Assembly: GCA_902770045.1 (NCBI GenBank) | Contig: CACXRO010000008.1 | Coordinates: 1,412 to 65,411, forward strand | Origin: an uncultured bacterium | GTDB taxonomy: Bacteria > Verrucomicrobiota > Kiritimatiellia > RFP12 > UBA1067 | Length of the DNA: 64,000 nucleotides | Direction: 5' to 3' | In this document: positions 1,629 to 59,878 of the stretch, piece after piece | Position numbering within the stretch: position 1 is the first letter of the stretch | How the letters are laid out: each line of letters begins with the position of its first letter | Program-made: the position numbers and the translations under genes | The notes under the pieces: generated by a model | Databases searched by the model: none | Told to the model about the DNA's origin: nothing | Seen by the model: only the letters and a program-made list of their open reading frames with translations

Positions 1629-3884
1629 CTACAGCAGGTTGCGCTGGATCTTGCCCGAGATGGTCTTGGGGAGCTCGTCCTTGAAGACCACGATGCGCGG
1701 ATACTTGTAGGGGGCGGTGTGCTCCTTGACGTACCGCTGCACCTCCTGCTTGAGGGTGTCGGTGCCCTGCACGCCCTTCACCAGCACGATCGACGCCTTC
1801 ACCACCTGTCCGCGCACCGGGTCGGGCGCGGCGGAAACGCCGCACTCGAGGACGAACGGCAGCTCCATGATGACGTTCTCGATCTCCGCCGGGCCGATGC
1901 GGTAGCCGGACGACTTGATGACGTCGTCGGCGCGGCCGACGTAGTGGTAATATCCGTTCTCATCCTTCCACGCCAGGTCGCCGGTGTGGTAGAAGCCGCC
2001 GCGCCAGACCTCGTCGGTCTTCTCCTCGTCCTTGTAGTAGCCGAGGAAGATGCCGGGATGCGGGTTCTTCCGGTCGGTGCGGACGACGATCTCGCCGTTC
2101 TCGCCAGGAGGCACCGGGTTGCCGTCTGCGTCGACGAGGTCGACTCCGTAGTCCGGCACCGGCTTGCCCATCGAGCCGGGCTCGAGCTCGTCGCCGAGCA
2201 AGTTGGCGAGCGAGAGCGTGGTCTCGGTCTGGCCGAAGCCCTCCGCGATCTCCAGCCCCGTCGCGCGCTCGAACTGGGTCCACACCTCCGGGTTCAGCGC
2301 CTCGCCGGCGGTGGTCGCGTGCCGGACGGAGGTGAAGTCGTACTTCGAGATGTCCTCCTTGATCAGCATGCGGTAGATGGTCGGCGGCGCGCAGAACGTC
2401 GTGATGTTGTACTTCTCGAACATCGGCAGCACCTTCTCGGCGTCGAAGCGCTCGAAGTCGTAGGTGAAGACCGCGCCCTCGCAGAGCCACTGCCCGTAAA
2501 ACTTGCCCCAGAGCGCCTTGCCCCAGCCGGTCTCGGAGATGGTGAAGTGGAGCCCGTCGCGCTCCACGAGATGCCAGTACTTCGCGGTCACGAAGTGCCC
2601 CAGCGCGTACTTGCAGCTGTGAAGCGCCATCTTCGGGTAGCCGGTGGTGCCACTGGTGAAGAACATGAGCATCGGGTCGCTGCCGCGCGGCGAGTCCGCC
2701 GTCCGCTCGAAGACGTCGGAGAAGCCCGGCACCTCGGCGTTGTAGTCATGCCAGCCCTCGCGCTTGCCGTAGACGAGCACCTTGACGAGCTTCGCGCCGA
2801 TCTCCTTCTCCGCGGCGTCCGCCTCGATCGCGACGTCGCCGTCGCCGGTGCAGAAAATCGCCTTCACGTCGCCCGCCTTGAACCGGTAGGTGAGGTCGTG
2901 CGCCTTGAGCTGGCTCGTCGCGGGAATCGCCACCGCGCCGAGCTTGTGGCAGGCGAGCATCGTCGGCCAGAACTGGAAGTGGCGCTTCAGGATCAGCATC
3001 ACCTTGTCGCCCTTGCCGATCCCGAGCGACTTCATGTAGTTGGCGACGCGGTTGGACTGCTCCATCATGTCCTTGAAGGTGAAGCGCCGCTCGCGCATGT
3101 GCGCCGAGACGTGCAGCATCGCCAGGCGGTTCGGGTCCTTCTTCGCGATCTCGTCCACGATGTCGAACGCGAAGTTGAACTCGTCGTCGTGCTCGTAGCG
3201 GATGTGGACGAGCTTGCCGTCGCCGTCCTCCTCGCACTTGACGAACTTCTCGGCCAGGAGCGGCTCGTTCGGCTTGCGGCGGCGCATCCTGACCATCGTC
3301 TGCGCCTGCTCCTCGGCGTCGCCGGCCATGATCATCGCGATGAAGGAGCAGCTCTTGCCGCCGACCGCCACCATGCCGTGGGGCGTCGAGGACTTGTAGA
3401 AGATCGAGTCGCCCTCCTTGAGCGTCTCCTCGTGGTCGCCCACCTTCACCCGCATCGAGCCGGAGACCACGAAGTCGAACTCCTGTCCGGCGTGGGTGGT
3501 GGTGTGGATCGGCGCGCGCTGCTGGCGCTCGTCGTAGTCGTAGGTCACGTAGTACGGCGTGGCGAGCCGGCCCTTGAACATCGCTGCCATGTTGCGGATG
3601 AGGATGCCGCGCTCGTTCACGGTCACCGGGCCCTGTCCGGCGCGGCAGACCTGGAAGTGCGAGAGCTTCGCGGTGTGGCCCTCGAGAAGCGCGTTGATGT
3701 CCACGCCGAACGCCAGCGAGCACTTGTGCAGGAAGGTGAACGGGGGGTCCATCGTCCCCGCCTCGATCGCGAGGTAGTCCCGCTCGTCCACGCCGGTCAG
3801 GCGGGCCATCTCCGACGGCGACTTGCCGCCGATCTCGCGCAGTTCCTTGATACGCGCGGCCATGCCCCTGAGTAGTTCGTTCAT
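1629..3884 (-). CDS. XRE-HTH + cupin domain fused to AMP-forming acyl-CoA synthetase
   Basis: 751 aa. HTH: SPSEMARLTGVDERDYLAIEAG. Cupin: GQEFDFVVSGSMRVKVGDHEETLKEGDSIFYKSSTPHG. Adenylate-forming motifs: FFTSGTTGYPKMALH, YHTGDLAWKDENGYYHYVGRADDVIKSSGYRIGPAEIE, SGKIQR. SD AAAGGAAAGG precedes the ATG at 3884. Confidence 0.85.
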   Translation of the reverse strand: MNELLRGMAARIKELREIGGKSPSEMARLTGVDERDYLAIEAGTMDPPFTFLHKCSLAFGVDINALLEGHTAKLSHFQVCRAGQGPVTVNERGILIRNMAAMFKGRLATPYYVTYDYDERQQRAPIHTTTHAGQEFDFVVSGSMRVKVGDHEETLKEGDSIFYKSSTPHGMVAVGGKSCSFIAMIMAGDAEEQAQTMVRMRRRKPNEPLLAEKFVKCEEDGDGKLVHIRYEHDDEFNFAFDIVDEIAKKDPNRLAMLHVSAHMRERRFTFKDMMEQSNRVANYMKSLGIGKGDKVMLILKRHFQFWPTMLACHKLGAVAIPATSQLKAHDLTYRFKAGDVKAIFCTGDGDVAIEADAAEKEIGAKLVKVLVYGKREGWHDYNAEVPGFSDVFERTADSPRGSDPMLMFFTSGTTGYPKMALHSCKYALGHFVTAKYWHLVERDGLHFTISETGWGKALWGKFYGQWLCEGAVFTYDFERFDAEKVLPMFEKYNITTFCAPPTIYRMLIKEDISKYDFTSVRHATTAGEALNPEVWTQFERATGLEIAEGFGQTETTLSLANLLGDELEPGSMGKPVPDYGVDLVDADGNPVPPGENGEIVVRTDRKNPHPGIFLGYYKDEEKTDEVWRGGFYHTGDLAWKDENGYYHYVGRADDVIKSSGYRIGPAEIENVIMELPFVLECGVSAAPDPVRGQVVKASIVLVKGVQGTDTLKQEVQRYVKEHTAPYKYPRIVVFKDELPKTISGKIQRNLL

Positions 3885-13531: not shown

Positions 13532-13535
<4 letters not shown>

Positions 13536-15310
13536 TTCCTGTTCTCCTCTCCTGTTTCGTCCGCGTCGACGGTCTCGTCGCGCTGGTAGATTGGCAACAT
13601 GCGGTATGGCACCGTAAAGGCCAGCACCGCCATCGAAGTGCAGTAGACCTGCCCGATCTCGCCGTTCCACGAGCCGTCGGGCTGCTGCTTCTTGAAGTAG
13701 GTCTCGTACATCCACGGCTCGAACTCCGCCCACGCCTCGCCGCCGAGCTGGAAGAGCCCCTGCGCCGTGTAGTAGAGTCCGTAGAAGGCGTTGTTGCCGC
13801 CGGCTAGCGCGCGGCGGAAAGTCCTGCGGACGAACTGGGCGCCCTTGAGCGCGTCGGGGTCGAGGTGGTGGCCGCAGAGCTCGATGCAGAGGATTGCCGC
13901 GCCGGAGAGAGTCTCGCCGAAGTTGCCGGAGTTGCCCTGGTAGCTGAACGCACCGTCGCTCTGGCGCTGCGAGCGCTTGATGTAGAGCACCGCCTTCTCG
14001 ATCGCGTCGTCCGGCAGCGCCGCGCCGTTGAGCCTTGCGCTGCGCAGCGCCATCAGCGCCCAGCCACTGCAGGAAAGGTCGCTGTCGTTCGCATCCGGCG
14101 TGTAGCGCCAGCCGCCGAGGTGCGCCGGGTTGGACTTGCGCTGACCCTGCGCGTCGATAATCACCTTCACTGCATGTGGCAGCACCGCATCGATGCGCGC
14201 CTGGCGGGTGGGGTCCACCATGCCGCTCGCCTCGGAGAGGAACAGCGTCGCGATCGAGTGGGCGTACATGCGCCCGTTTCCCTTCAGGCCCATATAGCCC
14301 CTGAACTTTGCCTGCGGCCCCATGTCCGCGCAGTCGAGCACGTAGTCGACGCAGTTCTCCACCACCGCGCCGTAGGGCTCGCTACCCGGCAGGTGCCCCT
14401 TCGAGAGGAACGCCATGCCGACGAGCGCGGGGATCGCGGCGGAATCGCCGTACTGCCCCGGAAACGCCCCGCTCGGCAGCTGCTTCGACGCAAGGAACTT
14501 AAGTCCGCGCTCAATCGACCGGTCGACGTCGTCCGCCTCCGGAGAGAACGTCGATCCGCCGCCGACCGTGCGCCGCAGTCCGCCGCCGTCAACGACCACC
14601 GCGGCGGCGGACTCCGCCGCCGGCGCCTCCCCCCCGGACCGGAGCGCGGCGACCGCGCCCGCGGCAAGCGTGGCGAGCGAGAGAAACGCGGCGAAGCAGG
14701 CGGTCCAGCTGTGGCGGAAGAGCCACGCGTTGCGCGGCCGCGTCGCCTTGATCAGCCGCTCGGTGAAGTCCGGCGAAAGCTCCGTGTCGCAGAGCATGTC
14801 GCGAAGCGCGTCCTTCGCGTAATGGAGGCGGCTGCGGACCGTGCCTTCTGGAATGCCGACGATCTTGGCGATCTCCGGCGTCGAAAGATCCTCGAAATAG
14901 CGCAGTACCACGACGTCGCGGTAGTTTTCGGGCAGCTTCCTCACCGCCGTGCGCACCGCCTCGGCGCTGCCGCGGAAGGCGAACTCCTCGAACGGATTCG
15001 GCGACTTGTCCTCAACCTCGGGCAGCTCGTCGTTCGGGACTACGGTCTCCTTCCTCGCAGCGCGCTTGCGCAGGTCCATGCGGTGGAAGTTGAGGAGGAT
15101 GGTGTAGACCCAGTAGTAGAACGAGCCGGTGGGCCGGAAGTCGTCGATCCGCTCGATGGCGCGCTCGAAGGCGCGGAACACGAGGTCCTCGGCCTCGTGG
15201 GCGTCGCGGCAGAGCAGCATGGCGGCCGCTTCAAGGCGCGGACGGTACTCCGCCACCAGGCGCCTGGCGCCCAGCTCGCGGTCTGCCCGTATCTGTTCGT
15301 AGATTTCCAT
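13532..15310 (-). CDS. ECF sigma-70 factor fused through a TM helix to a prenyltransferase/squalene-cyclase-repeat (alpha/alpha toroid) domain
   Basis: Sigma region 2 ([33 protein letters not shown]) and region 4 ([41 protein letters not shown]). TM helix [22 protein letters not shown]. About 330-aa C-terminal domain with repeats such as [14 protein letters not shown] and QQPDGSW. The start is ATG 15310 or GTG 15337. Confidence 0.75.
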
Positions 15311-15410
15311 CTCCCAAATGTACAATGCGCACCCCACTCAAAACGTTCAATGGCGGCAGAGCAGCCCCCTCCTCCGCCGTCGGAGCGGACGGCATTCGAC
15401 ATCCGGCCGC

Positions 15411-24716: not shown

Positions 24717-25670
24717 ATGAAAACCAAGACCATCATGCTGGCGCTTGCGGCGGCCGTCTGCGGCGCCGCGTTCGCAGACGAGGAAACGACCGAGGAAAAG
24801 GCCGAAGGCTGGTCGTACACGCCCGGCGATGGCGTTTCGTTCAACGAGACTCCGATCGTCTCGGCCGAAGCATCGCTCTCGTTCGACTCGAAGTACCTCA
24901 GCTACGGCTTCGTTGACAACAAGGCGCCGATCCTGACGCCCGCCGGCGAGATCACCTTCTTCGACTGGCTGACGTTCGGAGTGAGCGCAATCTTCGACCT
25001 CACGAAGTACGGCAACCACGCCGGCTATACCAGCCGCCAGTTCAAGTACACCGAGCTGCACCCCACGGTCACCCTCGGCCACTCCTTCTCGCCGGAGGAC
25101 TTCGAGTGGCTTCCCACCACCGTCGAATTCGCCCTCGGCTACGACTACGAGTTCCACCCGAACTCCAAGAACAAGGGCGGCCTCAACGAATACGAAAACG
25201 GCTGGGACACCTCCATCGCCGAGGACACGCAGTTCATCACGCTGGAGCTGGGCCTGCCCGACCTCTGGCTGGAGCCCACGTTCCTCTACGAGCGCGACAT
25301 CATGCGCGACGACGGCACCTACCTCAACCTCGAGATCGGCCACACCTTCAACCTGCTGGGCGAGGAGGACGACACCCTGACGCTGCGTCCGTCGATCGCC
25401 CAGGGCTTCGGCAACGGGCAGCGCGTGAAGGCATACGCCACGAAGAAGGACGGCGAACCGCTAAACCACGCCGGCCTCATGGACACCATGATCAAGCTCG
25501 AGCTCGGCTGGAAGGTCTGCGACAACGTCTCGCTCAGCGGCTATGTGGGATACTCCGACTTCCTGTTCGACCGCAAGATCCGCGACGCCTCCCGCGACTA
25601 CGAGGCGACCGGCTCGTGGGACGACAGCTGGAACGTCGTCGCCGGACTGGCCCTGACGATCTCGCTCTGA
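24717..25670 (+). CDS. putative outer-membrane beta-barrel protein
   Basis: 317 aa. Signal peptide MKTKTIMLALAAAVCGAAFA, alternating amphipathic strands rich in Y/G/D. SD AAGGAAAGG. Confidence 0.45.
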   Translation: MKTKTIMLALAAAVCGAAFADEETTEEKAEGWSYTPGDGVSFNETPIVSAEASLSFDSKYLSYGFVDNKAPILTPAGEITFFDWLTFGVSAIFDLTKYGNHAGYTSRQFKYTELHPTVTLGHSFSPEDFEWLPTTVEFALGYDYEFHPNSKNKGGLNEYENGWDTSIAEDTQFITLELGLPDLWLEPTFLYERDIMRDDGTYLNLEIGHTFNLLGEEDDTLTLRPSIAQGFGNGQRVKAYATKKDGEPLNHAGLMDTMIKLELGWKVCDNVSLSGYVGYSDFLFDRKIRDASRDYEATGSWDDSWNVVAGLALTISL

Positions 25671-26663: not shown

Positions 26664-26672
26664 ATTATACCA
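26664..26672 (-). promoter_or_regulatory. extended -10 promoter (TGGTATAAT), leaderless configuration
   Basis: TATAAT-ACTCGCC-ATG, a 7-nt spacer to the ATG at 26656. The palindrome CCTAA-N9-TTAGG at 26677-26695 lies just upstream. Confidence 0.55.
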
Positions 26673-26750
26673 TAAACCTAAACCGCGCGCTTAGGTCAAG
26701 TCACCCGCCCGCGCGGACGCCAGCACAGCCCCCGTTGTGTTAAACCCGTG

Positions 26751-28475
26751 CTACCGGATGAAGTACACAGACCCGGCCAGTCTCTGGGTCTCCACCGGGC
26801 CGTAGGCGAGGAACGCGGCGTCCGTCTGCGTCTTGTAGTCCGCCTGGGCATGGGCTTCCGAGGTCGCGCCGTTGCGGATGCGGAGTTCGTCGCTGCTGCC
26901 GACGAGGCCGCCGGCGAAGGTGAATTCAATTCCAGGGCTTTCTGACGCATAGACTGGTGAAGAACTTTTCTTGTTCGTCCCGTCAACCCACACAGTCACG
27001 TTGCCTCCCCAAGTGTAAACGCAGGTGAAATACCGCCACGTGGTTATGGAGGGGCAATCAAAATACCTCATGTTATTTCTGCCGCGGAAGGTGACCTGCG
27101 TGGCCTTGTTCTGCATATTGATTCCCCAGCCGTCCGTGTCAACACCACCTTTTATTGCCAGAATCGCATAGCCGCAGGAGGATGAATCGGCCTTCATCCA
27201 GCCGGAAATGGTGAAGTTCTGGACATTCGCGATGCCACCGAGAAGCGGCACCGTGATACCGGTCTTGTAGGCATTCGCGGTTGGGTGGTGGTATGTCTTG
27301 CCGACAGGCCCGTCGATCTGGGTCGTGTCGCTGGCGGTGGAGACGGCGTCGTAGTGGTTCGCTGACGAGTCCGAGGCATTGGTGGGATAGGCGTCACTGA
27401 AGTGCCAGACGCCGGCATGCCCCGGCCAAGTCAGCGCCGGCTCTACCACCGGAAGCTCCACCCCCTGCCGCGGCTTCCAGTACATGCGGAACTTTGTCGC
27501 GGCAGTCAGGTTCGTGATGTTCACCCAGACGAGCGACTCGCCGGAAGTGTTCCAGGTGTCGACCTCATGGGCGAGGAGCGAGCCATCCGGCAGGGTGAAG
27601 CGGACGTCCGAGCCGTTCTCGCCGCAGTCGGCGTAGCGGAAGCCGCTCTGCCGCGTCTCGCTCAGACGCACCAGCACCTGGAAGTTTGTATAGACATTCG
27701 CAGCCGGCAGCCTCCCCTCGCCTAACGAAATCTCCATCGTCTTCTCAAAGCCGTTGGTACTCGGCTTGTCGCCCGGCCAGGTCGGGGGTTCCAATATCGC
27801 GGGACCGGGATTGAACTTGCCGGTACCGGCGTTGGTCAGAAAGACATCTGTTTTGGTGTCGTAGAGGCCGAAAGCCGAATCGGAAACGCGGCGCGCCGGA
27901 ACATAGTCGTGTACGACGACGCCACCGTCGTAGATCTTACACGAATAGAACCGTATCTTCGAGCAGTTACTTGATACGCAGTTGTTCGCGAAGATGAAGA
28001 GAGAGCCATTCGTGCTCTTGGTCGGGGCCGTGCTGTGGGTGGTCATGGCCGTGCCGTCGATGTAGTACTTCCTATCGGTGCAGTCGAGCTTGTGGGTGTG
28101 CCTGTTCTTGTCGGCCGTGGTATTGGTCCTCACCCAGTCGCCTTTGTCTTCCGCCAGCGCCGACGCTAAATAGCCCTGACCCTGGATATAGATGTCGAAG
28201 TTCAGATGTCCGGTCCCGAGATCTCCGTCCGGGTCGGACGTGCCGTTGTGCGAGTTGCCGAAGATTCGCTGCTGCTTGGTGTCCTTGTCCGTGAACTGCA
28301 CGTCCGCCTCGACCGCCATTGTCGGCGTGATGACAACGCCAGTATCGATATACTGCGTGCCAGTCGACTCAAGGTATTCGTGTTCGGCGTAGCCAGCCGG
28401 AAGCGTGCCAGCCTCCGCTCCCAGCGCGACCGCAGCGCAAACGATACCACTCGCGAGTTTCTTCGCCATCTTCAT
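26751..28475 (-). CDS. secreted LamG/concanavalin-like protein P1, ends ...AGSVYFIR
   Basis: Signal peptide MKMAKKLASGIVCAAVALGAEA, N-terminal EYLESTGTQYIDTG module, LamG-like jelly-roll (WRYFTCVYTWGGNVTVWVDG). SD AAGGGGGA favours the ATG at 28475. Confidence 0.75.
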   Translation of the reverse strand: MKMAKKLASGIVCAAVALGAEAGTLPAGYAEHEYLESTGTQYIDTGVVITPTMAVEADVQFTDKDTKQQRIFGNSHNGTSDPDGDLGTGHLNFDIYIQGQGYLASALAEDKGDWVRTNTTADKNRHTHKLDCTDRKYYIDGTAMTTHSTAPTKSTNGSLFIFANNCVSSNCSKIRFYSCKIYDGGVVVHDYVPARRVSDSAFGLYDTKTDVFLTNAGTGKFNPGPAILEPPTWPGDKPSTNGFEKTMEISLGEGRLPAANVYTNFQVLVRLSETRQSGFRYADCGENGSDVRFTLPDGSLLAHEVDTWNTSGESLVWVNITNLTAATKFRMYWKPRQGVELPVVEPALTWPGHAGVWHFSDAYPTNASDSSANHYDAVSTASDTTQIDGPVGKTYHHPTANAYKTGITVPLLGGIANVQNFTISGWMKADSSSCGYAILAIKGGVDTDGWGINMQNKATQVTFRGRNNMRYFDCPSITTWRYFTCVYTWGGNVTVWVDGTNKKSSSPVYASESPGIEFTFAGGLVGSSDELRIRNGATSEAHAQADYKTQTDAAFLAYGPVETQRLAGSVYFIR

Positions 28476-28500
28476 ACGCATTCCCCCTTTATTGACGCAA

Positions 28501-28509
28501 ATTATACCA
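28501..28509 (-). promoter_or_regulatory. extended -10 promoter (TGGTATAAT) for P1
   Basis: ATT-TGGTATAAT, leaving a leader of about 19 nt that contains the SD. Confidence 0.5.
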
Positions 28510-28556
28510 AATTGTCGCGCGCGCGCAAGGGCGGCGCGCGGCAGATTAGAGGCCCT

Positions 28557-31465
28557 TCACCGAAGGTACCACACGGAGCCGGGCGGGGTGCCCCAGGTCC
28601 AGGTAAGGCGGACTTGACTGTCGCCGATGGCAGACTTGTCAATCGTGAAGGCATTGCCCCACCTCTGCCCGCTGACAACCCAAACGCCGTTGGTCAAGGT
28701 CTCGACGGTCATCCTCGGCGAATAGCAGCGGCCGCCGACGTAAACATAGCCGGCCTTAAGCGTCCAGATGCCGGAGACGAAATCGTAGTCGCCGTCCGGG
28801 ACTGCGCTGGTGCCGTTTACTCCGGTGTCAGCAATCTCTCCGTTCACAACCGTCACGTTGGGGCAGAAGCGCGCGTGGTCCACGGCGTTGTTGTGCTCAA
28901 GCTGCCAGCCCTCGAGCGCGCCAGCGGTCATGCGGACCGCGCAGATCTCCGCTCCGCTCCGGAGTATGGCGGCGTTCGAGTTGTTGTCGTTGCGTCCGCC
29001 AACACCAAAATTCGTCAAGGTCGCGTCGATTCCCGATACGGTTATCGAATGGAACCTGTTCGTGCCGTCGCAATAGCCGGTGGCCGTGTCGCCATCGCAC
29101 ACAACCGCAATGTACTGGCGGGTGTTCCACCTGGTCGGAGACTCGTCCGAGGCAGGGATCAAAGCGTCGTCGTTCCAGGCGGCAGAGAGATATTGAAGCC
29201 CCTGGACAAGCGGATGGGTAGAATAGTTTTTACGGATGTCAACTCCAAGCTGGCGATGGGTGAGGTCGCCTGCATAGAACCAGGTCTCGTAATCGGACGT
29301 GGGAGGATACGAATAGGAAATCATCATCTCCAGCGTGAACTTCTTCGCATACAGCGCGTTCATCACATCGACAGAATCGCCGCGGAAAATGGTTGAGCCG
29401 TTCGCCACCCAAGCGTCGTTCGTGAACCCGGCGACGCCACCGTATTTGCTCAGGTCGAAGCCGCCGGCGAGGTTCTTCCATGTCGTCAGGGAGGACGCGT
29501 GCGCGGCGTTGGTCCCGGCGTTGTAGATGCCATCGAAGTGGCCGATGAGTTCCGTCGTCTGGATGTAGTCGCCGACGCCATATTGCCTGACGTTGCCCGT
29601 CTGCGACCACAGCCAGGTAAGGCGCATCCGCCCGTTCTCTACGTTGTTCACGTAGGTAAACGAATTGCCCTGCTCGGTCTTGAAGTAGTCCCACTTGCCG
29701 GTGGCCGCATTCCACTTCTCCACCTTGTGGCCGACGGCAGACCACACGAAAAAGCCGTCCGTCACGTTCGTGGCGGCGAAGGTACGGCTCGCATTCACCG
29801 TGTAGGAGCCAGGAATCTCGACGCCCTCGAGCCCGCGCGCATTCGCCGCGATGACAAGGTCACCCCCGTGCTCGCCGGGAGCGTATGCGCCGTCGATCGG
29901 ACTTGCCGCCCATTGCCACTCGAGGCGGCGGAAGGATGCGGGCGTCGGATGCGTGTAGGTGAAGGCTGTCTCCACGCCGTTCGATAGCTCATTGCCGTCA
30001 TTGTCGTACAGCTTCCATCCCGTGTAGGAATAGGCGACTGACCCATACGCGTTCGTCCACGGCGTAGTACCGCAGGAGACGGCCACATGGTCGCCGGCGG
30101 CGAGACCGGAGACGTTGCCGTATCCCGGCGACGGCGTGGACACTTCCTCCGCGGCGGAAGTGGTGATGGCAAGCATGCCGAAGGTCGGGTCGGTCTCGAA
30201 CCAGGTCCAGGTGAGGCGGATTCGCCCGTCGCCAAGGACGTCCTTGTCCACGGTATAGGAGTTGACGAATTCCAGTATGTCTGTGACCACCCATGCTCCG
30301 TCGGTCAGCTTTTCCACGGTGAGCTTCGGCGCGTAGTAGGCGCCGGGCCGGTCAATGTCGTCCGCCGTGATCGTCCATGTGCCGGAAAGGAGATCGTAGT
30401 CGCCATTCGGAGCCGAACTCGCCCCGTTCTCGCCGGTTTCGCCGATGGCACCGTTCACCACCGTAACGTTGTTGCAGAAGCGCGCGTGGTCCACGGCGCT
30501 GTTGTGCTCGAGCTGCCAGCCCTCGAGTGCCTGGGAGGTCATGCGGAGCGCGCAGATTTCCGCGCCATTGATGAGTTTGTTTCCGCTGTCGGAGGCGCGC
30601 ACGCCGACGCCGACTTGCGTAAGCGACGGCGTCACGCCCGGGACCGTAATCGAATGGAACCGGTTGGTGCCGTCGCAATAGCCAGTGGCCGTGTTGCCGT
30701 CGCACACGATCGCAATGTACTGGCGGGTGTTCCATTTGGTCTTGGTGCCGCCCCAGTTCTGGACGACGGCGCCATCGTTCCAGCTGCCTCCGCCAAGATA
30801 CTGGATGCCCTGGATGAGCGGATTTTGGCTGTTGGCGCTGCGCATGTCCACGCAAAGCTGGCGGTCGTTGTTGTTCCCGAGGAACACCCAGGTGCCATAC
30901 GAATTACTGCCGATCTGCGGCGAGGAGATCATCATCTCCAGCGTGAACTTCCCCGCGATCAGCGCGTCCCGCGGACCGGCGGATGAACCGGTGTAAAACG
31001 TCGATCCGTTCGCGACCCAGGAGTCGGCCGAGAACCCGGAGGTGCCGCTTCTGGTCAGGTTGAACTTGCCGGCCAGGTCGACCCAGGTGCCGAGAGAAGC
31101 CGCGTGCGCGGCGCTGCGGCCGGCGTTGTAGATGCCGTCGAAGTGGCCGACGAGGCCGGCTGTCTGGATGTAGTCGCCGAGGCCGTACCGCCTGACGTTG
31201 CCCGTCTGCGTCCAGAGCCAGGTGAGGCGCATCCGACCGTTCTCGGCGTTGTTGGTGTAGGCGAAGGAGTTGCCCTGCTCGGTCTTGAAGTAGTTCCACA
31301 CACCGTTGCCGGCATCCCACTTCTCCAGGCTGTAGCCGACGGGCACCCACGAGATCGGGCCAATGGTCAGGTTGGTGGCGGAGAAGGTGCGGTTGTCGTC
31401 CACTATATATGGACCGGGCGGCTCGACGCCCTCCAACCCGTGCGCGTTCTGTTCTACGACAATGT
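28557..31465. repeat. intragenic tandem duplication: homologous 1.3-kb modules at about 28557-29866 and 30195-31465
   Basis: The protein halves align from (D[IL]V[VI]..NA.GLEGVE.PG.Y.V) through to (RLTWTW). DNA blocks are clearly alignable, e.g. 28875-28960 versus 30485-30570. Confidence 0.75.
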
Positions 31466-32088
31466 CGCTCGCCTGCTCGGGGGCGGTGAAATCGGCCCCT
31501 CCCGACAAGTCGCCGTAGAAGACGTCGTTCACCGTGTCCCAGAGCCCGTATTTCGACACGGACGTCCCTTCGTTCGCGTCGGCGATTGTCGCCCGGCAGG
31601 GACGGAAGTTGCGGATGAGCACGCCGTCGTCATGGATCGTCATGCCATAGAGACGCGCGGTAAGCGGACGGTTGGAACCCATGTCGAGTCCCGTCGCGGT
31701 GTTGAGGAAGAAGACTGTCATGGACAGCGACGAAGTGAATGTCTGGTTCCCCCCGTTGTGGATCTTCGTGGGGATGCCGCCTTCCGCAGCTACCCAGAGC
31801 CGGCCGTTCTCGTTGCTGACGACGCAGCGTGTGTTTTGGTAGGCAGACCCCACCTGCATAGAGTCAATGCTCCCGCAGTTCAAGGCGAACTTGTATTGGC
31901 CGCCGACCCAAAGGCCCAGTCTTTGGGACTTGTCGCTGGAACTCGCTCTCTCGCCGACGATGCAGCTTGAGCCTGCCGGACGACTGGATGTACTCGACAA
32001 AAAAATCGAAGTTGGTCGTAGTCGTCGCGCTTGCGATCATAGCCGCAAAACACATAACACCACATGCGAGTTTTCTCACCATGTTCAT
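28557..32088 (-). pseudogene. secreted LamG protein P2 (two 1.3-kb LamG modules), reading frame broken after the signal peptide; ends ...PPGSVWYLR
   Basis: The promoter, SD (AGGAGAGG) and signal peptide (MNMVRKLACGVMCFAAMIASA...FVEYIQSSG) belong to ORF 31864..32088. The remaining 1147 aa are in the +1 frame (28557..32000). Removing one nt near 31974 restores VEYIQSSG-GSSCIVGE... Confidence 0.6.
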
Positions 32089-32158
32089 CTTGCCTCTCCT
32101 GTTTGGTTAAATCCCATTTCCAGTTCAGGCATACACCCTCCCCCGAGATTTTGTCAGT

Positions 32159-38929: not shown

Positions 38930-38938
38930 AGTATACCA
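38930..38938 (-). promoter_or_regulatory. extended -10 promoter (TGGTATACT) for GT8-Wzx-ArnT-like operon
   Basis: The reverse complement of agtatacca gives ATTA-TGGTATACT, about 150 nt upstream of the ATG at 38777. Confidence 0.4.
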
Positions 38939-38989
38939 TAATCCGCAGGGCTTGAGGCATTGTAGGCGCCGCGGAGAGTCTGACGATGA

Positions 38990-39121
38990 TTAGATCAGGT
39001 GGATGGCCGTGCCCGGGGCGCGCTGCGTCTCCACCTTTCCGTAGGAGAGGAAGCCCGCATCGGTCTGCGTCTTATAGTCCGCCTGGGCATGGGCTTCCGA
39101 AGTCGCGCCGTTGCGGATGCG
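38990..39121 (-). pseudogene. orphan 3'-terminal fragment of a P1-like LamG gene
   Basis: Aligns to 26751-26882. The fragment reads IRNGATSEAHAQADYKTQTDAGFLSYGKVETQRAPGTAIHLI-stop; P1 reads IRNGATSEAHAQADYKTQTDAAFLAYGPVETQRLAGSVYFIR-stop. There is no upstream coding continuation. Confidence 0.8.
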
Positions 39122-39190
39122 AAGCTCGGCGTCTCCAACCGCACCGAAGCCGTCGCCGTCGCTCTCCGCAAGCAGCTCCTGAAGATCTGA
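39119..39190 (+). pseudogene. orphan 3'-terminal fragment of the LuxR response-regulator gene
   Basis: These 72 nt match 34575-34646 with 2 mismatches and encode AKLGVSNRTEAVAVALRKQLLKI-stop. They join directly to the LamG fragment at a shared GCG. Confidence 0.85.
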
Positions 39191-53915: not shown

Positions 53916-56900
53916 TTACCGGAGGTAGTAGACCGAGCCGATGCCGGTCGCGGCCTCCCAGCAGCCGATGTCGATGATCTTGCCCTGAATGCGAGGGGCG
54001 CCATCAAGGTCAGTCGTCGAAGTCGCGTAGGACGAGTAGAGCGTATTGTCGCCGGCGTTGTAGAGCGCGCCATCGCGCTTCGGGCGGTAGTTACCGTTCG
54101 CGGCATCCCTAAAGGCCGCGTCCGTGAGGTCCTTCACCGTGGAGTTGGCTCCCGTGAAGGCAGCGTCAGCCGAGAATGCGCAGCTGTAGAACCTCGCCGG
54201 GTTCTTGTTGGCCCATTCGGCCAAGGCCGTGCCGCCGTTGTTGTAGACAACACAGTTCACGACGAGCGCCGATGCGTTGTTCACATAGACGCCTCCAGTG
54301 CCGCCGCCGGTGCCACCATCTGGATTGTTGCCGACGATGGTGCAGTTTACGGCCCTGGCGGAGGCGGCATCCAGATAGATCGCGCCCTTTCCGGCGTGGT
54401 TGTCGCGAACGAGGCAGTTCTCGATTACACCGCCAGCCAGATACGCGCCGGAACCAATCGGCAGCCAGGTGCCGGTCTTAGCTGGCGCCTTTTCGATGAT
54501 GCAGCGCGAAACGACGCCGCCCGCGATGTACGCGCCCGGGCCAAGCGGTCCGCTCCCTACCAACGGACTCGTCAGCAGGCTGTCAACGGCCACGCCGTTG
54601 CGGATGTAGAGGTTTAGCCCCTTGCCGTCCTGCACCGTGGAGGAGCCTCGGGCAAGAACGCAGTTCGTCACGGTTCCGTTTTCCAGTCGGACGTTGCCGC
54701 CGGCGTAGGATATGTCTGCGGCCGTCACCGTCCCGTTCGTGACGGTGAGGTTCCTGAGCACCGCGTCCTCGTCAGTGAGGCAGAAGATCCGCGCCCCCGA
54801 CTTGCCGATCTTGACGGCGTTGCGGTCAGAGGCAATGCCCTCGACCGTCACCCGAGACCCGATGGCAGGAAGTCCGTTTTCCTCGTATGTCCCAGCGGCG
54901 ATGTGAACCGTGACCCCGTCAACGTCGGTTGCGCACGAAGAGTTCACATTCGTAAGCGTGGCAAGGGCATGGAAAATCGTAAGGAATGGCGCGGCGGCGG
55001 TGCCGGCGTTCGCGTCGTTGCCTTCTGGCGACACGTAGATGTCGGTTTCCGCCACGCAGATGGGCACGCTCACGGTAATCCAGTTGCCATATTCTCCGCT
55101 TCCATCCCGACCCCTTACCCTCGCTTGGAACAAGCCAGCAATATCGAATCGGCGGGAAATCTGGGGATTGGTCGTCACGAGGTGGGCGGAACCGTCCCCG
55201 AAGTCCAGTTCGTACGTCACCGCACCCGCAGCGCCGGCCGCATGGCAGACAAAGTCAACCATACTGCCCTTCAATACCGACGGATAGGACGCCACCGTGG
55301 CAACGACGTTGAAGCTGCTCTGGTCGAGCTCGCTGCATCCAATGTCGATGTGGCGGCCTGAAATGCGCGCATTCCCGGCAATGTCAGTCTGGGAACTGGT
55401 GGACGGATAGCGCGAGTCGTCGCCTGCGTCAACCATCGGCGACCCGAGCAGCGGCGTCCAGTATTCGTCGTCATCGAAGTAGGACGACCTGTTGGTGAAC
55501 GGCAGCGTGGTCCAGTTGACGCCATTGGCGTTTTCGACGGTCGAGACGCAGTTGAAGAAGCGCGCGCCGTACTGGTTCGCCCACTCGGCGGTCGCCGTGC
55601 CGCCATTGTTGAAGATGACGCAGTTCACGACGGACGCAGAGTTGTTGTTCACATAGACGCCGCCAATGCCGCCGCCAGTGCCGCTATCAGGATAGTTGCC
55701 GACGATGGTGCAGTTTACGACCTTGGCGGCGCCGTTCAAATAGATCGCGCCCTTTCCGGCATGGTTGTTGCGAACGAGGCAGTTCTCGATGACGCCGCCA
55801 GTCAAGTACGCACCAGTGCCAATCGCCAGCCAGGTGCCTTTCTTCGCCGGCGCGTTTTCGATGACACAACGCGAAACAACGCCGCCAGCAATGTAGGCAC
55901 CCGAACCAAGCGATCCGCTCCCGACTAGCGGACTGGTCAGAAGGCTGTCAACAACCATGCCGCCGCTGATGTAGAGGTTCCCGCCCTTGTCGTCTGTAAG
56001 CGAGTTTATTCCGCCTCCCGTCAAGACGCAGTTCGCCACGGTTCCATTTTCCAGGCGGACGTTGCCGCCAGCGTAGGCTATGTTTACAGCCGTCACCGTT
56101 CCGTTCTGGACGGTGAGGTTCTTGAGCGCCGCGTCGGCGTGGGCGACGCGGAAGACCCGCGCGCCGGACTTGCCGATCTTGACGGCAGTGCGGTCTGCCG
56201 CGTTGCCGGCGATGACAATCGCGTTCGTGACCACGAGGCCGTTTTCGGGATAGGATCCGTCCGCGGCATTGATTATCACGTGCTGCGCGCCGCCCGCGAT
56301 GGCCGCATCCGCCTTCTCGATCGCGTTGGAGATGGTGGCGAAGGGATGCTCCGCCGAGCCGTCGTCGTCGTCACTACCGGTCGTCGCCACGTAGAATCCC
56401 GCGCCGAAGTTCGCCGTCATCTCGAACGGCGCAGTCGGCGTGAAGGTGGCGGACGCCGAGGTGTCGGTGATGCCCGAAGGCAGCGTTCCAGTCCAATTGA
56501 TGAACGCCTTGCCGGAATCCGGCGTCGCCGCCACGGTGATCGGCGTGTCGGTGGCGTACCAGGCGGTGCCGGACGGCGAAACCGAGCCGTCAGCGCCGGC
56601 GACGACATTCCCCTTCACCGCCGACGGCTGCCACACCCACTCGAGCCGGCGAAACGCCGCTGGCGTCGGATGGGTATAGACGAAAGACAGGGTGTTGCCG
56701 CTGTCGACGATGCTGTCGTTCGCGTCGTAGAGCCTCCAGCCCGCGCAGGAATATTCGATGGTCTCCGCGGCGTTCGTCCAGGTAATCGCGCCGCCGCAGG
56801 TGACGATGTGGGTGTCGCCGGCCACGAGGCCGGTGACGTAGCCGTCGGCGGGACTCGGCCTGCCGGCGCCCTCGGGCGTGCTGGAGATCGCGAGCCGCGA

Positions 56901-58577
56901 ATTGTCGACGGCCTGGGTGAAGCGCTGCTGGTCGAGAGTCTGGTTTTCGATGATTTCCAGGTCTGTCAGCCGGCGGCTGTAGAGGCGGATCGCGTAGATT
57001 GAACCGACGAATCCGTTGCCCTTGTTTTGCCTGTTGCCAAGGAAGGTCTCCTGTCCAGGGACCGACCAGCTACTGCCGCCAGATGCAGTCAGCGCCGTCC
57101 CGTTGGCGAGCGCGGAGATGGGCGCGCCGGACGAGTAACGCACCGCGACAAAGTTGTTCGAAGTCCCCGACGCGAACGGGAACATCATCTGCGATCCTTG
57201 CGAAGCATCGGTGTAAGGAATGATACTGGAAGTATTATATATTCCGAATGCCAATCCAGAAGCTGCCGTGGACTGCAACATAACCTGGCTGCCGGAGCCG
57301 GTGTTAGAGCGATAGACAATCTCCAGCGTGCCGTTCTTCGCGGCAACGAAAGTGGAAGCCGTGTCGGCGGAGGAGAGGGTGCCGTATGACGATGACGTTC
57401 CGTCGAAGATCATGCTGTCGTCGCCCACGGTGGTATTGTTGAGGCTGAACTCGTAGCCGCCCACAAGATCCTTCCAGACATTCGTGCCGTCGACGTGGAC
57501 GCCGGAACCGGCGTTCTGGATACCGTCCCAAAATGCAATCAGCCCGTCACTGACGTAGCCGGTAGGCGGGGAAGTCATCTCCCACTGCCATTGAAGTTCG
57601 CAGTATTCAGCCGGCGACGAATGCGTGTAGGTGAAGGAGGTGTCGGATCCGCTTGAAACCTGGGTGCCGTCCTCGTCGTACGTCTTCCAGCCGGTGCAGG
57701 AATAGACGGAGCCGTTGGCGTTCGTCACGACCGCATTGCCGCAAGAGACGGAGACGGTCTCTCCGGCCTCAAGGCCCTGGACATATCCGTAAGCGGGCGA
57801 CGGCGAGCCTATGCCTTCCGCCGAGGACGTCACATTGAGCGTGTCGGCACCGATGTGGAGAATGAAGCGCTTTTGGTCTACCGCCTGGTTCGCGGCAATT
57901 TCCTCGTCCGTCAGCTGGCGGCTGTAGAGTCGGATGCAGTAGATGGAGCCGTCGAAATGGGTGTTGGCCGCTTGGCTGGCCCTGTTGCCGATGAATGTCA
58001 CCGTTCCCGGACTGCCCCAGGTGTCGTTTGCGGAGGATATCAGCGACAATCCGTTGGCGATTGCGGCGGCTGGCGCTCCGGCGGTGTAGCGCACGGCAAC
58101 GGTGTTCGTAGCTGCCCCGGATGTGAACGAATACTTCGGTTTTGTAGCTCCTGAACTGGTGTATGGAAGGATTAGATTGCCGCTAAGCAGACCGAATGCC
58201 AGCCCAGCGCTCGCTGTGGACTGGAGGAGAATCTGGGTTCCACTGCCTGTGCGCGAAGCATAGACGATCTCCATCGTGCCGTTCTTCGCGGCGACGAAGG
58301 TCGAGGTGGTGTCGGCGGCGGAGAGGGTGCCGTAGGAAGAGGACGTTCCGGCGAAGGTCATGCGGTCGTCGTCCACGGTGACGCCGGTGAGGCTGAACTC
58401 GTAGCCACCGACGACGTCCTTCCAGACCGTCGCGTTGTCGTCGTGCGTCCCGGTGCCCGCGTTCTCGATGCCGTCCCAGCAGGCGATCAGCCCGTCCTGG
58501 ACATAACTAGAGGTGGAGGCAGCCGACGCATTCAGCGCGGCGCAAAGGCATACGGCGACGATGGATGGACTTTTCAT
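53916..58577 (-). CDS. giant secreted protein P3: 2x LamG + InlB-B-repeat-like + 2x parallel beta-helix + PKD; ends ...GIGSVYYLR
   Basis: Start MKSPSIVAVCLCAALNASA (leaderless geometry). YVQDGLIACWDGIENAG LamG modules occur twice. Beta-helix repeats (NCTIVGN, NCVIFNN, NCLVRNN) occur twice. PKD-like YELDFGDGS. Confidence 0.8.
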   Translation of the reverse strand: MKSPSIVAVCLCAALNASAASTSSYVQDGLIACWDGIENAGTGTHDDNATVWKDVVGGYEFSLTGVTVDDDRMTFAGTSSSYGTLSAADTTSTFVAAKNGTMEIVYASRTGSGTQILLQSTASAGLAFGLLSGNLILPYTSSGATKPKYSFTSGAATNTVAVRYTAGAPAAAIANGLSLISSANDTWGSPGTVTFIGNRASQAANTHFDGSIYCIRLYSRQLTDEEIAANQAVDQKRFILHIGADTLNVTSSAEGIGSPSPAYGYVQGLEAGETVSVSCGNAVVTNANGSVYSCTGWKTYDEDGTQVSSGSDTSFTYTHSSPAEYCELQWQWEMTSPPTGYVSDGLIAFWDGIQNAGSGVHVDGTNVWKDLVGGYEFSLNNTTVGDDSMIFDGTSSSYGTLSSADTASTFVAAKNGTLEIVYRSNTGSGSQVMLQSTAASGLAFGIYNTSSIIPYTDASQGSQMMFPFASGTSNNFVAVRYSSGAPISALANGTALTASGGSSWSVPGQETFLGNRQNKGNGFVGSIYAIRLYSRRLTDLEIIENQTLDQQRFTQAVDNSRLAISSTPEGAGRPSPADGYVTGLVAGDTHIVTCGGAITWTNAAETIEYSCAGWRLYDANDSIVDSGNTLSFVYTHPTPAAFRRLEWVWQPSAVKGNVVAGADGSVSPSGTAWYATDTPITVAATPDSGKAFINWTGTLPSGITDTSASATFTPTAPFEMTANFGAGFYVATTGSDDDDGSAEHPFATISNAIEKADAAIAGGAQHVIINAADGSYPENGLVVTNAIVIAGNAADRTAVKIGKSGARVFRVAHADAALKNLTVQNGTVTAVNIAYAGGNVRLENGTVANCVLTGGGINSLTDDKGGNLYISGGMVVDSLLTSPLVGSGSLGSGAYIAGGVVSRCVIENAPAKKGTWLAIGTGAYLTGGVIENCLVRNNHAGKGAIYLNGAAKVVNCTIVGNYPDSGTGGGIGGVYVNNNSASVVNCVIFNNGGTATAEWANQYGARFFNCVSTVENANGVNWTTLPFTNRSSYFDDDEYWTPLLGSPMVDAGDDSRYPSTSSQTDIAGNARISGRHIDIGCSELDQSSFNVVATVASYPSVLKGSMVDFVCHAAGAAGAVTYELDFGDGSAHLVTTNPQISRRFDIAGLFQARVRGRDGSGEYGNWITVSVPICVAETDIYVSPEGNDANAGTAAAPFLTIFHALATLTNVNSSCATDVDGVTVHIAAGTYEENGLPAIGSRVTVEGIASDRNAVKIGKSGARIFCLTDEDAVLRNLTVTNGTVTAADISYAGGNVRLENGTVTNCVLARGSSTVQDGKGLNLYIRNGVAVDSLLTSPLVGSGPLGPGAYIAGGVVSRCIIEKAPAKTGTWLPIGSGAYLAGGVIENCLVRDNHAGKGAIYLDAASARAVNCTIVGNNPDGGTGGGTGGVYVNNASALVVNCVVYNNGGTALAEWANKNPARFYSCAFSADAAFTGANSTVKDLTDAAFRDAANGNYRPKRDGALYNAGDNTLYSSYATSTTDLDGAPRIQGKIIDIGCWEAATGIGSVYYLR

Positions 58578-58584
58578 ATCGTAT

Positions 58585-58593
58585 ATCATACCA
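58585..58593 (-). promoter_or_regulatory. extended -10 promoter (TGGTATGAT), leaderless configuration
   Basis: TATGAT-ATACGAT-ATG, a 7-nt spacer to the ATG at 58577. The track start at 58589 lies inside the -10. Confidence 0.5.
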
Positions 58594-58675
58594 TATCTAC
58601 CGCATTCTGCCGTCCGTTATGCGAAATTGCCTTGTTGCAGATTGCGAAACACACTTGCACCCGAACCCTCTGCTG

Positions 58676-58684
58676 TGATATACT
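58676..58684 (+). promoter_or_regulatory. extended -10 promoter (TGATATACT), leaderless configuration
   Basis: TATACT-GCCCTCC-ATG, a 7-nt spacer to the ATG at 58692. TTGCAC lies 18 nt upstream as a possible -35. Confidence 0.5.
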
Positions 58685-58691
58685 GCCCTCC

Positions 58692-59807
58692 ATGTACAGC
58701 GTTCTGAGATTTCCGCGCGGCGAAAAATCGATCACCCCAAACTTCCATGACGCGACGAACCTCTACGAGAGATACGGCCTCTCGGTAAAGTTCGCCGATG
58801 CAAATGTCAGCAGCGCGAAGGAGGTGGCGGAGCTGATTGAGTTCTGGCAGCCCGACGGCTGCATCGTGAACAACGACAAGCTGCCGGAGAAGTTGTTCGC
58901 CGGACTGCCAACCGTGTTTCTCCACCGCGACATCAAACCCGGCAATCCCCGCCACGCCACCGTCAGGCTCGACGAAAAGGCCATCGCCGCCGCTGCCGCG
59001 CACCACCTGCTGTCGCTGGAGCTGGCCTCGTACGCATACGTGCCGCCGGATATCGAGGAGAACTGGAGTCGTCTGCGCGGGCGGCACTTCGTCAGCATCC
59101 TCGGACTCAACGGGCGCGGCGTTGCGTGCTATGCCCATCCGAAGCGACGCGTCTCCGCCACGGGCCGTCTGGCGCATCTTGCCTCATGGATAGAGAGCCT
59201 TCCGCGTCCGGTCGGCATATTTGCCGCGAACGACGCCGTGGCCGCCGCGGTAAACGCCGCTTGCGACCACAGTAAGCTGGCGATTCCCGACGACGTCGCG
59301 CTGCTCGGGGTCGACAACGACGAATCGATCTGCGAAGTCCTGCGGCCGACGCTGTCAAGCATCGCCGTCGACGTCCCTTCCGCGATATGCGAAACCGCGC
59401 ATCTGCTCTGGATGCTCATCTCCAGAAAGCGGATCAAAGAACGCAATTCCACCATCGCGCCGATTGGAGTCGTGCGCAGGGCCTCGACTTTCCGCCTGAA
59501 AAGAAGCGACCCTGCGGTTGTCGCCGCCTGCGAACTCATCCGGAAGAAGGCATGCTGCGGACTCAAGGCCCGCGATGTCGCGGCGACTTTCCCGTGCGGA
59601 CGGCGCATGGCGGAGATCCGCTTCCGCGCCATGCTTGGCCATTCGATTCTCGACGAGATTCGCGCCGTGCGGCGAAAACGAGCCATGATGGCCGTCACGC
59701 CCTTCCGCACTATGCTGTACGATGAAGTCGCCGCGCTGTGCGGCTATCATTCACGCAGTTCCGTCCACCGCCTGCTGCGCAAACCACCCAACCACCCAAC
59801 CACCTGA
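58692..59807 (+). CDS. XylR-like regulator: periplasmic-binding-protein-type sensor domain + AraC HTH
   Basis: Internal start MYSVLRF. LacI/PBP1-like core (VGIFAANDAVAAAVNAACDHSKLAIPDDVALLGVDND) and a C-terminal AraC-type HTH (ILDEIRAVRRKRAMM...VAALCGYHSRSSVHRLL). Confidence 0.65.
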   Translation: MYSVLRFPRGEKSITPNFHDATNLYERYGLSVKFADANVSSAKEVAELIEFWQPDGCIVNNDKLPEKLFAGLPTVFLHRDIKPGNPRHATVRLDEKAIAAAAAHHLLSLELASYAYVPPDIEENWSRLRGRHFVSILGLNGRGVACYAHPKRRVSATGRLAHLASWIESLPRPVGIFAANDAVAAAVNAACDHSKLAIPDDVALLGVDNDESICEVLRPTLSSIAVDVPSAICETAHLLWMLISRKRIKERNSTIAPIGVVRRASTFRLKRSDPAVVAACELIRKKACCGLKARDVAATFPCGRRMAEIRFRAMLGHSILDEIRAVRRKRAMMAVTPFRTMLYDEVAALCGYHSRSSVHRLLRKPPNHPTT

Positions 59808-59813
59808 CCATCA

Positions 59814-59878
59814 ATCTGCCGCGGAAACTGCCGCGGCCTTTCAACCTTTCAACCTTTCAACTTTTCAACCTGTTTAAC
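59814..59878. repeat. intergenic repeat: ATCTGCCGCGGAAACTGCCGCGGCC + (TTTCAACY)x4 + TGTTTAAC
   Basis: Second copy of the 18565-18629 element. It fills the gap between the convergent stops at 59807 and 59886. GCCGCGG-N6-CCGCGGC can form a 7-bp GC hairpin. Confidence 0.8.

Follow-up and report, generated by a model that had tools for sequence, protein, structure and literature searches.

A short, degenerate C-terminal tag on large exported proteins of Kiritimatiellia and Lentisphaeria as a candidate post-Sec sorting or surface-retention signal

Why do four large proteins encoded in one stretch of a bacterial chromosome, with unrelated sequences before their ends, finish in nearly the same seven residues? 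The question is raised by a 64-kb segment of contig CACXRO010000008.1 from an uncultured bacterium of the Kiritimatiellia (assembly GCA_902770045.1; the whole analysed stretch of 64,000 nucleotides is called the window below). It is bacterial chromosomal DNA with a guanine-plus-cytosine (GC) content of 66%, and it carries the housekeeping genes glnA, recA, lgt and feoB and a BatA/VWA/MoxR cluster. A first-pass annotation, made from the letters of the window, had claimed that four large proteins share the terminus G-S-V-[YW]-[YF]-[IL]-R followed by a stop codon, and this was borne out by the translations of the open reading frames (ORFs) and by a six-frame scan. All four genes, which we call P1 to P4, lie on the minus strand. 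From the ORF translations, P1 ends in GSVYFIR (...QRLAGSVYFIR; 26754-26774, TAG stop at 26751-26753), P2 in GSVWYLR (...GTPPGSVWYLR; 28560-28580, TGA stop at 28557-28559), P3 in GSVYYLR (...ATGIGSVYYLR; 53919-53939, TAA stop at 53916-53918) and P4 in GSVYYIR (...TKRTGSVYYIR; 59889-59909, TAG stop at 59886-59888). When the 64 kb were scanned in six frames with the motif G[ST][VAIL][YWF][YFHW][ILVM][RK], there were exactly four matches, which are the ends of P1 to P4, and 4/4 stand directly before the stop. The tail codons vary (for example, GGG TCT GTG TAC TTC ATC CGG versus GGC TCG GTC TAC TAC CTC CGG); because codons and stops differ, the conservation is at the level of the peptide and does not reflect a DNA repeat. 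Since the downstream DNA is different as well, a DNA repeat or a terminator as the cause of the conservation is ruled out.

The restriction to the C-terminus was also seen in a larger sample. The comparison set consisted of the window and about 1.0 Mb of related loci (numbered with the prefix L), translated in six frames; the related loci had been obtained through tail-bearing families. In this set the motif GS[VI][YWF][YF][ILFV]R occurred 14 times, with the stop as the next codon in 14/14. The loose pattern G-x-(4 hydrophobic)-[RK], counted on ORFs of at least 200 aa, was found at the end of 44/1366 such ORFs, as compared with 0.94 expected from its internal frequency. Metagenome DNA was also scanned, without regard to protein family, for sequences that encode GSVYY[ILM]R and a following stop. 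Of the 29 matches, about 25 lie at the ends of ORFs that are long or extend without a break to the contig edge. These 25 or so stand in at least eight unrelated upstream contexts, and tagged carriers in metagenomes include polysaccharide deacetylase, BspA-type leucine-rich repeat (LRR) proteins, PATR repeats, LamG/DUF2341 proteins and beta-helix proteins. In viral contigs the GSVYY[ILM]R pattern had a single match, in a 42-codon ORF, where the next codon is TGG (Trp) and not a stop. We have little doubt that the tag exists, that selection acts on it at the protein level and that it occurs at C-termini only.

The heptapeptide of the window is not the tag in its general form. It is a local variant, GSV[YW][YF][IL]R, of the looser tag [K/R]-G-x-(four hydrophobic)-R-COOH, which occurs at the C-terminus only. 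In the consensus of 95 unique tails, position -8 is commonly K or R, position -7 is G in 77/95, position -6 is F, T, L or M, position -5 is V, I or L, position -4 is I or L, position -3 is I, F or Y, position -2 is V, L, I or F, and position -1 is R in 88/95 and K in 7/95. The residues between the Gly and the terminal Arg are thus five in number, hydrophobic and mostly beta-branched or aromatic. K, W, Y and I are rare terminal residues, the last three being found in a few lineages (Tyr- and Trp-ending examples are GSIFSIY, GSMYILY, GTVITMW and GMLIIFW). Homologues of the P4 C-terminus bear the tails GTMLIMR, GFHIIVR, GFYLLLR, GFYIYLR, GLILHVR and GTLIFVR, and in the alignment of this family only two tail positions are invariant, the Gly and the terminal Arg, with variation at the five positions that separate them. 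An unrelated DUF2341-LamG family, retrieved together with P1 and named in NCBI as Kiritimatiellae proteins, ends in GMIIFIR, TFVIVVR, GLMLILK or GTVVFFR. Tagged genes occur in dense arrays, as in locus L080 (757-21576), where six consecutive signal-peptide genes, encoding beta-helix, LamG/DUF2341 and Gly_rich_2 proteins, are all tagged; their tails are STVILIW, GLVIIVK, PTCLIFR, GLVIFLR, ALMLLIK and GSVFIVR, with W, K or R at the end. Locus L081 has GSV..R tails alongside GTAIYLI. A genome-specific heptapeptide co-evolving with one receptor is ruled out by the mixed tails of L080 and the mix in L081. Thus, the idea of one shared C-terminal tag held, whereas the fixed sequence did not: the tag is degenerate, G-x-(4 hydrophobic)-R, and other genomes mix its versions.

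The first-pass annotation had further proposed that the tail is an appended module, and here it was right. P1 (576 aa, 26751-28481, minus strand) consists of a Sec signal peptide, an N-terminal jelly-roll (LPAGYAEHEYLESTGTQYIDTG), a DUF2341-like region, LamG, a linker and the tail. After the signal peptide it thus has tandem ConA-like/LamG jelly-rolls, and a fold search gave matches to ConA-like, LamG and lectin domains. In the AlphaFold2 model of P1 (predicted local distance difference test score, pLDDT, 82.7), the last LamG strand is at residues 558-565, and residues 566-576 form a coil past this strand with a block pLDDT of 57. Orthologues of P1 (56-96% identity) end in GSVYFIR, GLVIYVR or GTAIYLI, and these three tails are borne by proteins that are otherwise 88-96% identical. 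At the DNA level the orthologues are near-identical up to the codons for ...PVE, after which the last approximately 12 codons and the downstream flank are wholly divergent (divergence zone in the DNA comparison: window 26740-26790, L079 11690-11750, L081 8460-8520). In this the tail region of P1 resembles a cassette that has been exchanged, or a site of recombination. In P3 (1557 aa, 53916-58589, minus strand) the order is signal peptide, two LamG plus immunoglobulin-like repeat units, a divergent InlB B-repeat (Flg_new_2), a beta-helix with choice_anch_Q, PKD, a second beta-helix and the tail; Pfam-type matches were LamG_3, Flg_new_2, PKD and two right-handed beta-helices. The tail comes after ...IDIGCWEAATGI, the end of a choice-of-anchor-Q-like beta-helix cap. 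The first-pass annotation had placed the tail of P3 and P4 where beta-helix domains of the 'choice-of-anchor' type in other phyla are followed by a sorting domain, and the link to such a domain holds: NF041518 (choice_anch_Q) matches P3 at residues 1047-1088 with 37.1 bits against a cut-off of 25, and a second copy directly before the tail scores 18.9 bits, under that cut-off. P2 (28557-32150, minus strand; main ORF 28557-32000) has two internal repeats, each with an RLTWTW end, and P4 (59886-64000, minus strand; ORF 59886-63479) is represented by the C-terminal approximately 1370 codons of a two-beta-helix giant whose start lies beyond the window end. No single terminal domain is shared by the four. 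These contexts, the coil in P1 and the homologous modules of other phyla described below, which end before the tail or carry another domain in its place, support the view that the tag is an appended module and that a short flexible linker joins it to whichever domain is last. The possibility that it is the last strand of a shared domain is ruled out by the model of P1, the unrelated upstream contexts and the tail-less homologues in other phyla. Neither of the two computational outcomes that would have spoken against the first-pass annotation, a motif without excess at C-termini or one known domain at the end of all four proteins, was obtained.

The tag is tied to export signals. Signal-peptide-like N-termini were found in 77/82 tail-bearing homologues versus 10/37 tail-less ones (p = 1e-13), and within loci the association between tail and signal peptide has an odds ratio of about 6 (p = 0.0025). 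All four proteins of the window had been credited with a signal peptide, past or present. This holds for P1 and P3, which have the only intact ones among the four inside the window. P2 is without an intact signal peptide because a 74-nt deletion (window 31900-32150, minus strand), seen against its orthologue in L081 (3111-6719; 98.9% identical, with a signal peptide and an identical tail), shifts the signal-peptide-coding 5' part (MNMVRKLACGV..., approximately 32040-32150) into another frame; P2 is either a pseudogene or the frameshift is an assembly error. The N-terminus of P4 is beyond the window; the whole protein has about 2400-3000 aa, the part inside the window is 56-60% identical to residues 1127-2398 of the L002 protein and 1818-3013 of the L004 protein, and the L004 orthologue has a signal peptide. 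The tail is not on every exported protein, being absent from two others of the window, a BNR-repeat protein and a probable outer-membrane barrel. The latter is a 317-aa protein (24717-25670, plus strand) with a signal peptide, an alternating-strand sequence and no match in Pfam or PDB; it ends in ...VVAGLALTISL and probably forms a beta-barrel in the outer membrane, whose final strand would be hydrophobic and ordinary.

A second kind of carrier was recurrent. In this fusion family an N-terminal extracytoplasmic function (ECF) sigma-70 factor (regions 2 and 4) is followed by one transmembrane helix (approximately aa 182-200), a Pro/Thr-rich linker with a conserved signal-peptide-like segment (...NNEE.AMNT.LVKSAAV...), varied passengers and the tail (L002 7372-10629; L082 1523-4729; L090 3250-5748, minus strand; proteins P0149-P0161). 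Because there is a single transmembrane helix, the tail of these fusions is outside the cytoplasm, and their architecture hints at a sensing role for it. The window itself has an ECF sigma factor (13532-15337, minus strand; regions 2 and 4) with a transmembrane helix and an extracytoplasmic part of about 370 aa, which is weakly similar to prenyltransferase or squalene-cyclase repeats and has no tail.

The tag is also limited taxonomically. Tails are present in metagenome-assembled genomes (MAGs) of Kiritimatiellae, Lentisphaerae, Victivallales and 'Verrucomicrobiota', the nearest genomes being rumen RUG MAGs and Kiritimatiellae MAGs. In rumen, gut and sediments, bacteria of the Kiritimatiellia and Lentisphaeria are abundant and degrade polysaccharides. 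Some tailed contigs are labelled Erysipelotrichaceae, Muribaculaceae or Anaerovoracaceae; their GC content at third codon positions (GC3) is 0.83-0.94 where measured, and these contigs are probably mis-binned. The homologous beta-helix module (...RVNLGAYGNT..AS..) ends without a tail in Treponematales, Trueperaceae, Parcubacteria, Kofleriaceae and Pirellulales. After the homologous module, Mariniphaga (Bacteroidota) has Por_Secre_tail, Fibrobacterota have an FlgD_ig or type IX secretion system (T9SS)-like domain, and Armatimonadota and Puniceicoccaceae have a dockerin. Since the same module in other phyla is followed by a T9SS domain or a dockerin, the tail fills the slot of known anchors.

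What, then, might the tag be for? Judging from the sequences, we give a probability of about 0.5 to the explanation that it is a new post-Sec sorting or surface-retention signal, which a receptor from another part of the genome would recognize in trans as a C-terminal beta-strand with a free end. The carriers, which in Kiritimatiellia and Lentisphaeria are large proteins that bind or degrade glycans, either cross the inner membrane by Sec or are tethered with the N-terminus in and the C-terminus out. In the periplasm the exposed C-terminal strand would be captured in trans by beta-strand pairing. The capturing protein might be a receptor of the outer membrane or the periplasm that holds the terminal Arg and its carboxylate in a pocket, its gene lying elsewhere in the genome. 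The carrier would then be moved across the outer membrane or kept at the cell surface, or both, with the tag taking the place of the T9SS C-terminal domain or the dockerin of homologous modules in other phyla. We infer recognition in trans, strand pairing and sorting from the features described above. Four points weigh against this explanation. When 610 ORFs, taken from the window and 78 loci (L001-L078), were clustered all against all, no family recurred as a neighbour of tagged genes, and without a conserved neighbour in this set the proposed receptor is hypothetical. The tail is very degenerate, differs between near-identical orthologues and in some cases ends in Ile, Trp or Tyr, so that a strict Arg pocket cannot be universal. 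The AlphaFold2 model of the P4 C-terminus, with a pLDDT of 30-40 over the last 100 residues, is too poor to exclude docking of the tail on the beta-helix. Finally, since the loci were fetched through tail-bearing families, the enrichment counts come from a biased sample and not from an unbiased proteome.

Other readings of a free, hydrophobic C-terminal strand have to be considered. The tail may mimic the beta-signal of outer-membrane proteins and pair with the first strand of an Omp85-family protein (BamA-, TamA- or TpsB-like) that exports or tethers the passenger. The beta-signal is recognized by pairing with strand 1 of BamA and has the spacing G-x-x-hydrophobic-x-hydrophobic, to which the tail consensus conforms if the terminal Arg is set aside, and the Tyr- or Trp-ending tails of some lineages listed above point in the same direction. 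However, as all positions of the tail are hydrophobic, the fit is not discriminating. The terminal residue is Arg in 88/95 tails and not aromatic, the hydrophobic run is continuous instead of alternating, no barrel precedes the tail, and the probable barrel of the window ends in an ordinary alternating strand without Arg; we regard such mimicry as unlikely. An equally improbable explanation is that a periplasmic protease, PDZ-type or tail-specific (Prc, CtpA or DegS-like), recognizes the tail, which would then serve quality control or signalling instead of sorting. PDZ domains bind free C-terminal strands, as DegS does with the tails of outer-membrane proteins, and the tailed fusions of ECF sigma factors with transmembrane segments (those of L002, L082 and L090 and protein P0161) would suit regulated proteolysis triggered at a free C-terminus. 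However, tail-specific proteases and DegS favour non-polar or aromatic last residues, a preference that does not fit Arg. Furthermore, it would be hard to explain why a genome should keep a degradation tag on dozens of exported proteins of very large size, and no protease gene was linked to tagged genes in the clustering of the 610 ORFs.

Two further explanations do without a separate protein receptor of the kind discussed so far. Direct anchoring in lipid or lipopolysaccharide (LPS), in which the five hydrophobic residues and the flanking interface residues (Arg, Lys, Trp or Tyr) insert in the outer leaflet without a receptor, would agree with a terminal residue that is always of the membrane-interface type (R, K, W or Y) and with a position -8 that is often basic. 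However, five Val/Ile-rich residues should give weak interfacial partitioning and would favour a beta-strand, and a conserved Gly at a fixed distance, together with the constant length, points to a shaped binding site; direct anchoring is improbable on these grounds. The tail could also be a structural strand that completes its own domain, or a neighbouring subunit in a donor-strand polymer. It does resemble an internal LamG strand (GSIYCIR and GSIYAIR in P3), and an N-terminal jelly-roll is common to many carriers. Nevertheless, the tail of P1 is undocked in the AlphaFold2 model, many unrelated domains precede the tail, the tail is swapped among near-identical orthologues, and many carriers lack the N-terminal jelly-roll, so that a structural role seems very unlikely.

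The surroundings of the tagged genes have several features of their own. A 3' fragment of a P1 paralogue (38990-39135, minus strand; about 48 codons) ends in GTAIHLI followed by TAA, an alternative tail on a truncated gene. The first-pass annotation took it for a relic with a decayed tail, and this has to be corrected: because GTAIYLI and GTAIHLI endings are common in full-length orthologues of P1, GTAIHLI is a live alternative tail and not a decayed one. A short way past their stops, P1, P2 and the fragment at 38990 each have an extended -10-like element, TGGTATAAT or TGGTATACT (26670-26700, 28490-28530 and 38930-38945, respectively, minus strand), and the one past P2 is followed by GGGGGA and then by the start codon of P1. 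Just downstream of the P4 stop there are two tandem arrays of 8-nt units (59782-59871), CCTTTCAA in 4.4 copies at 59837-59871 and AACCACCC in 2.9 copies at 59782-59804. Between P4 and P3, a gene for a LacI-type regulator (Peripla_BP_3, E = 1.4e-24; 58443-59807, plus strand) is divergent from P3, which suggests that P3 is under sugar-responsive control. The N-terminal jelly-roll of P1, 'LPxGYTxxEYIxSxGTQYIDTG' (27777-28406, minus strand), is common to proteins without a signal peptide or tail, and these signal-peptide-less jelly-roll proteins (P0060-P0067, P0074-P0076 and others) end in '...FYTNAGTGxF..'. A phage origin of this domain found no support, as a search of PHROGs was without a match.

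If the tag is indeed a sorting or surface-retention signal, we would tentatively go one step further and suppose that it is the address label of an undescribed export or surface-display system specific to Kiritimatiellia and Lentisphaeria. Such a system, which is a possibility and less probable than the sorting role itself, would read a strand of Gly, five hydrophobic residues and Arg-COOH without a transmembrane helix or folded domain, and would serve dozens of very large glycan-active proteins per genome, with the tailed membrane-tethered ECF sigma factors reporting its load. The tag would then be shorter than any bacterial C-terminal sorting label known so far, and no earlier one would lack both a transmembrane helix and a folded domain. 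A seven-residue tag that occurs only at the C-terminus would give a simple, searchable definition of the secretome of Kiritimatiellia and Lentisphaeria and a handle for phylogenetic profiling of the partner machine. It would also help to annotate giant metagenomic proteins, thousands of which are listed as 'hypothetical', and it could be used as a transferable tag for display or secretion.

Comparison with known systems shows both likenesses and differences. The first-pass annotation had held the tail to be unlike known C-terminal sorting signals, and our searches agree: when the full proteins, and eight isolated tails at E up to 10, were scanned against Pfam and NCBIfam, no sorting-signal model matched the tail, which has no transmembrane helix. 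In the literature on sorting signals in Kiritimatiellia and Lentisphaeria we found no description of this tail. Apparently, it is an undescribed type of C-terminal tag. LPXTG, PEP-CTERM, GlyGly-CTERM and MYXO-CTERM resemble it in that they are short C-terminal tags with many-to-one pairing which occur after 'choice-of-anchor' domains. The signals for sortase, exosortase and rhombosortase are, as is the tail, lineage-restricted and found on many paralogous surface proteins. However, two published accounts describe signals of the sortase and exosortase type as three-part, including a transmembrane helix and a basic cluster (10.1101/2023.06.07.544157; PMC11980579). The tail differs from them in that it has five hydrophobic residues and one Arg without a transmembrane helix of approximately 15-20 residues. 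No sortase, exosortase or rhombosortase is encoded in the window, and none recurs next to the tagged genes in the clustering of the 610 ORFs. The choice-of-anchor Q domain (NF041518) is the passenger-end domain that precedes the tail in P3, and not the tag itself.

The BamA-read beta-signal of outer-membrane proteins is similar to the tail in being a free C-terminal beta-strand, and a few tail lineages end in Tyr or Trp; the G-x-x-hydrophobic-x-hydrophobic spacing would suit the tail if its Arg is ignored, but does not discriminate; the tail differs by its Arg end, its non-alternating hydrophobic run, and upstream LamG or beta-helix domains in place of a barrel. Unlike substrates of type I secretion, the tailed proteins have N-terminal Sec signal peptides, as in 77/82 of the homologues and in P1 and P3. 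A further likeness is to the T9SS domain (Por_Secre_tail, PF18962/TIGR04183) of Bacteroidota and Fibrobacterota. T9SS is not known in Kiritimatiellia or Lentisphaeria, and PF18962 had no match on P1 to P4, whereas as a positive control it matched the homologues in Mariniphaga and Fibrobacterota. The T9SS domain marks large Sec-exported multidomain proteins (with LamG, beta-helix and PKD) for the outer-membrane step, and its final strand, too, is hydrophobic and has Lys or Arg (for example, ...RRITLLR). However, that domain folds as a beta-sandwich of 70-100 aa, whereas the tail is seven residues after a linker.

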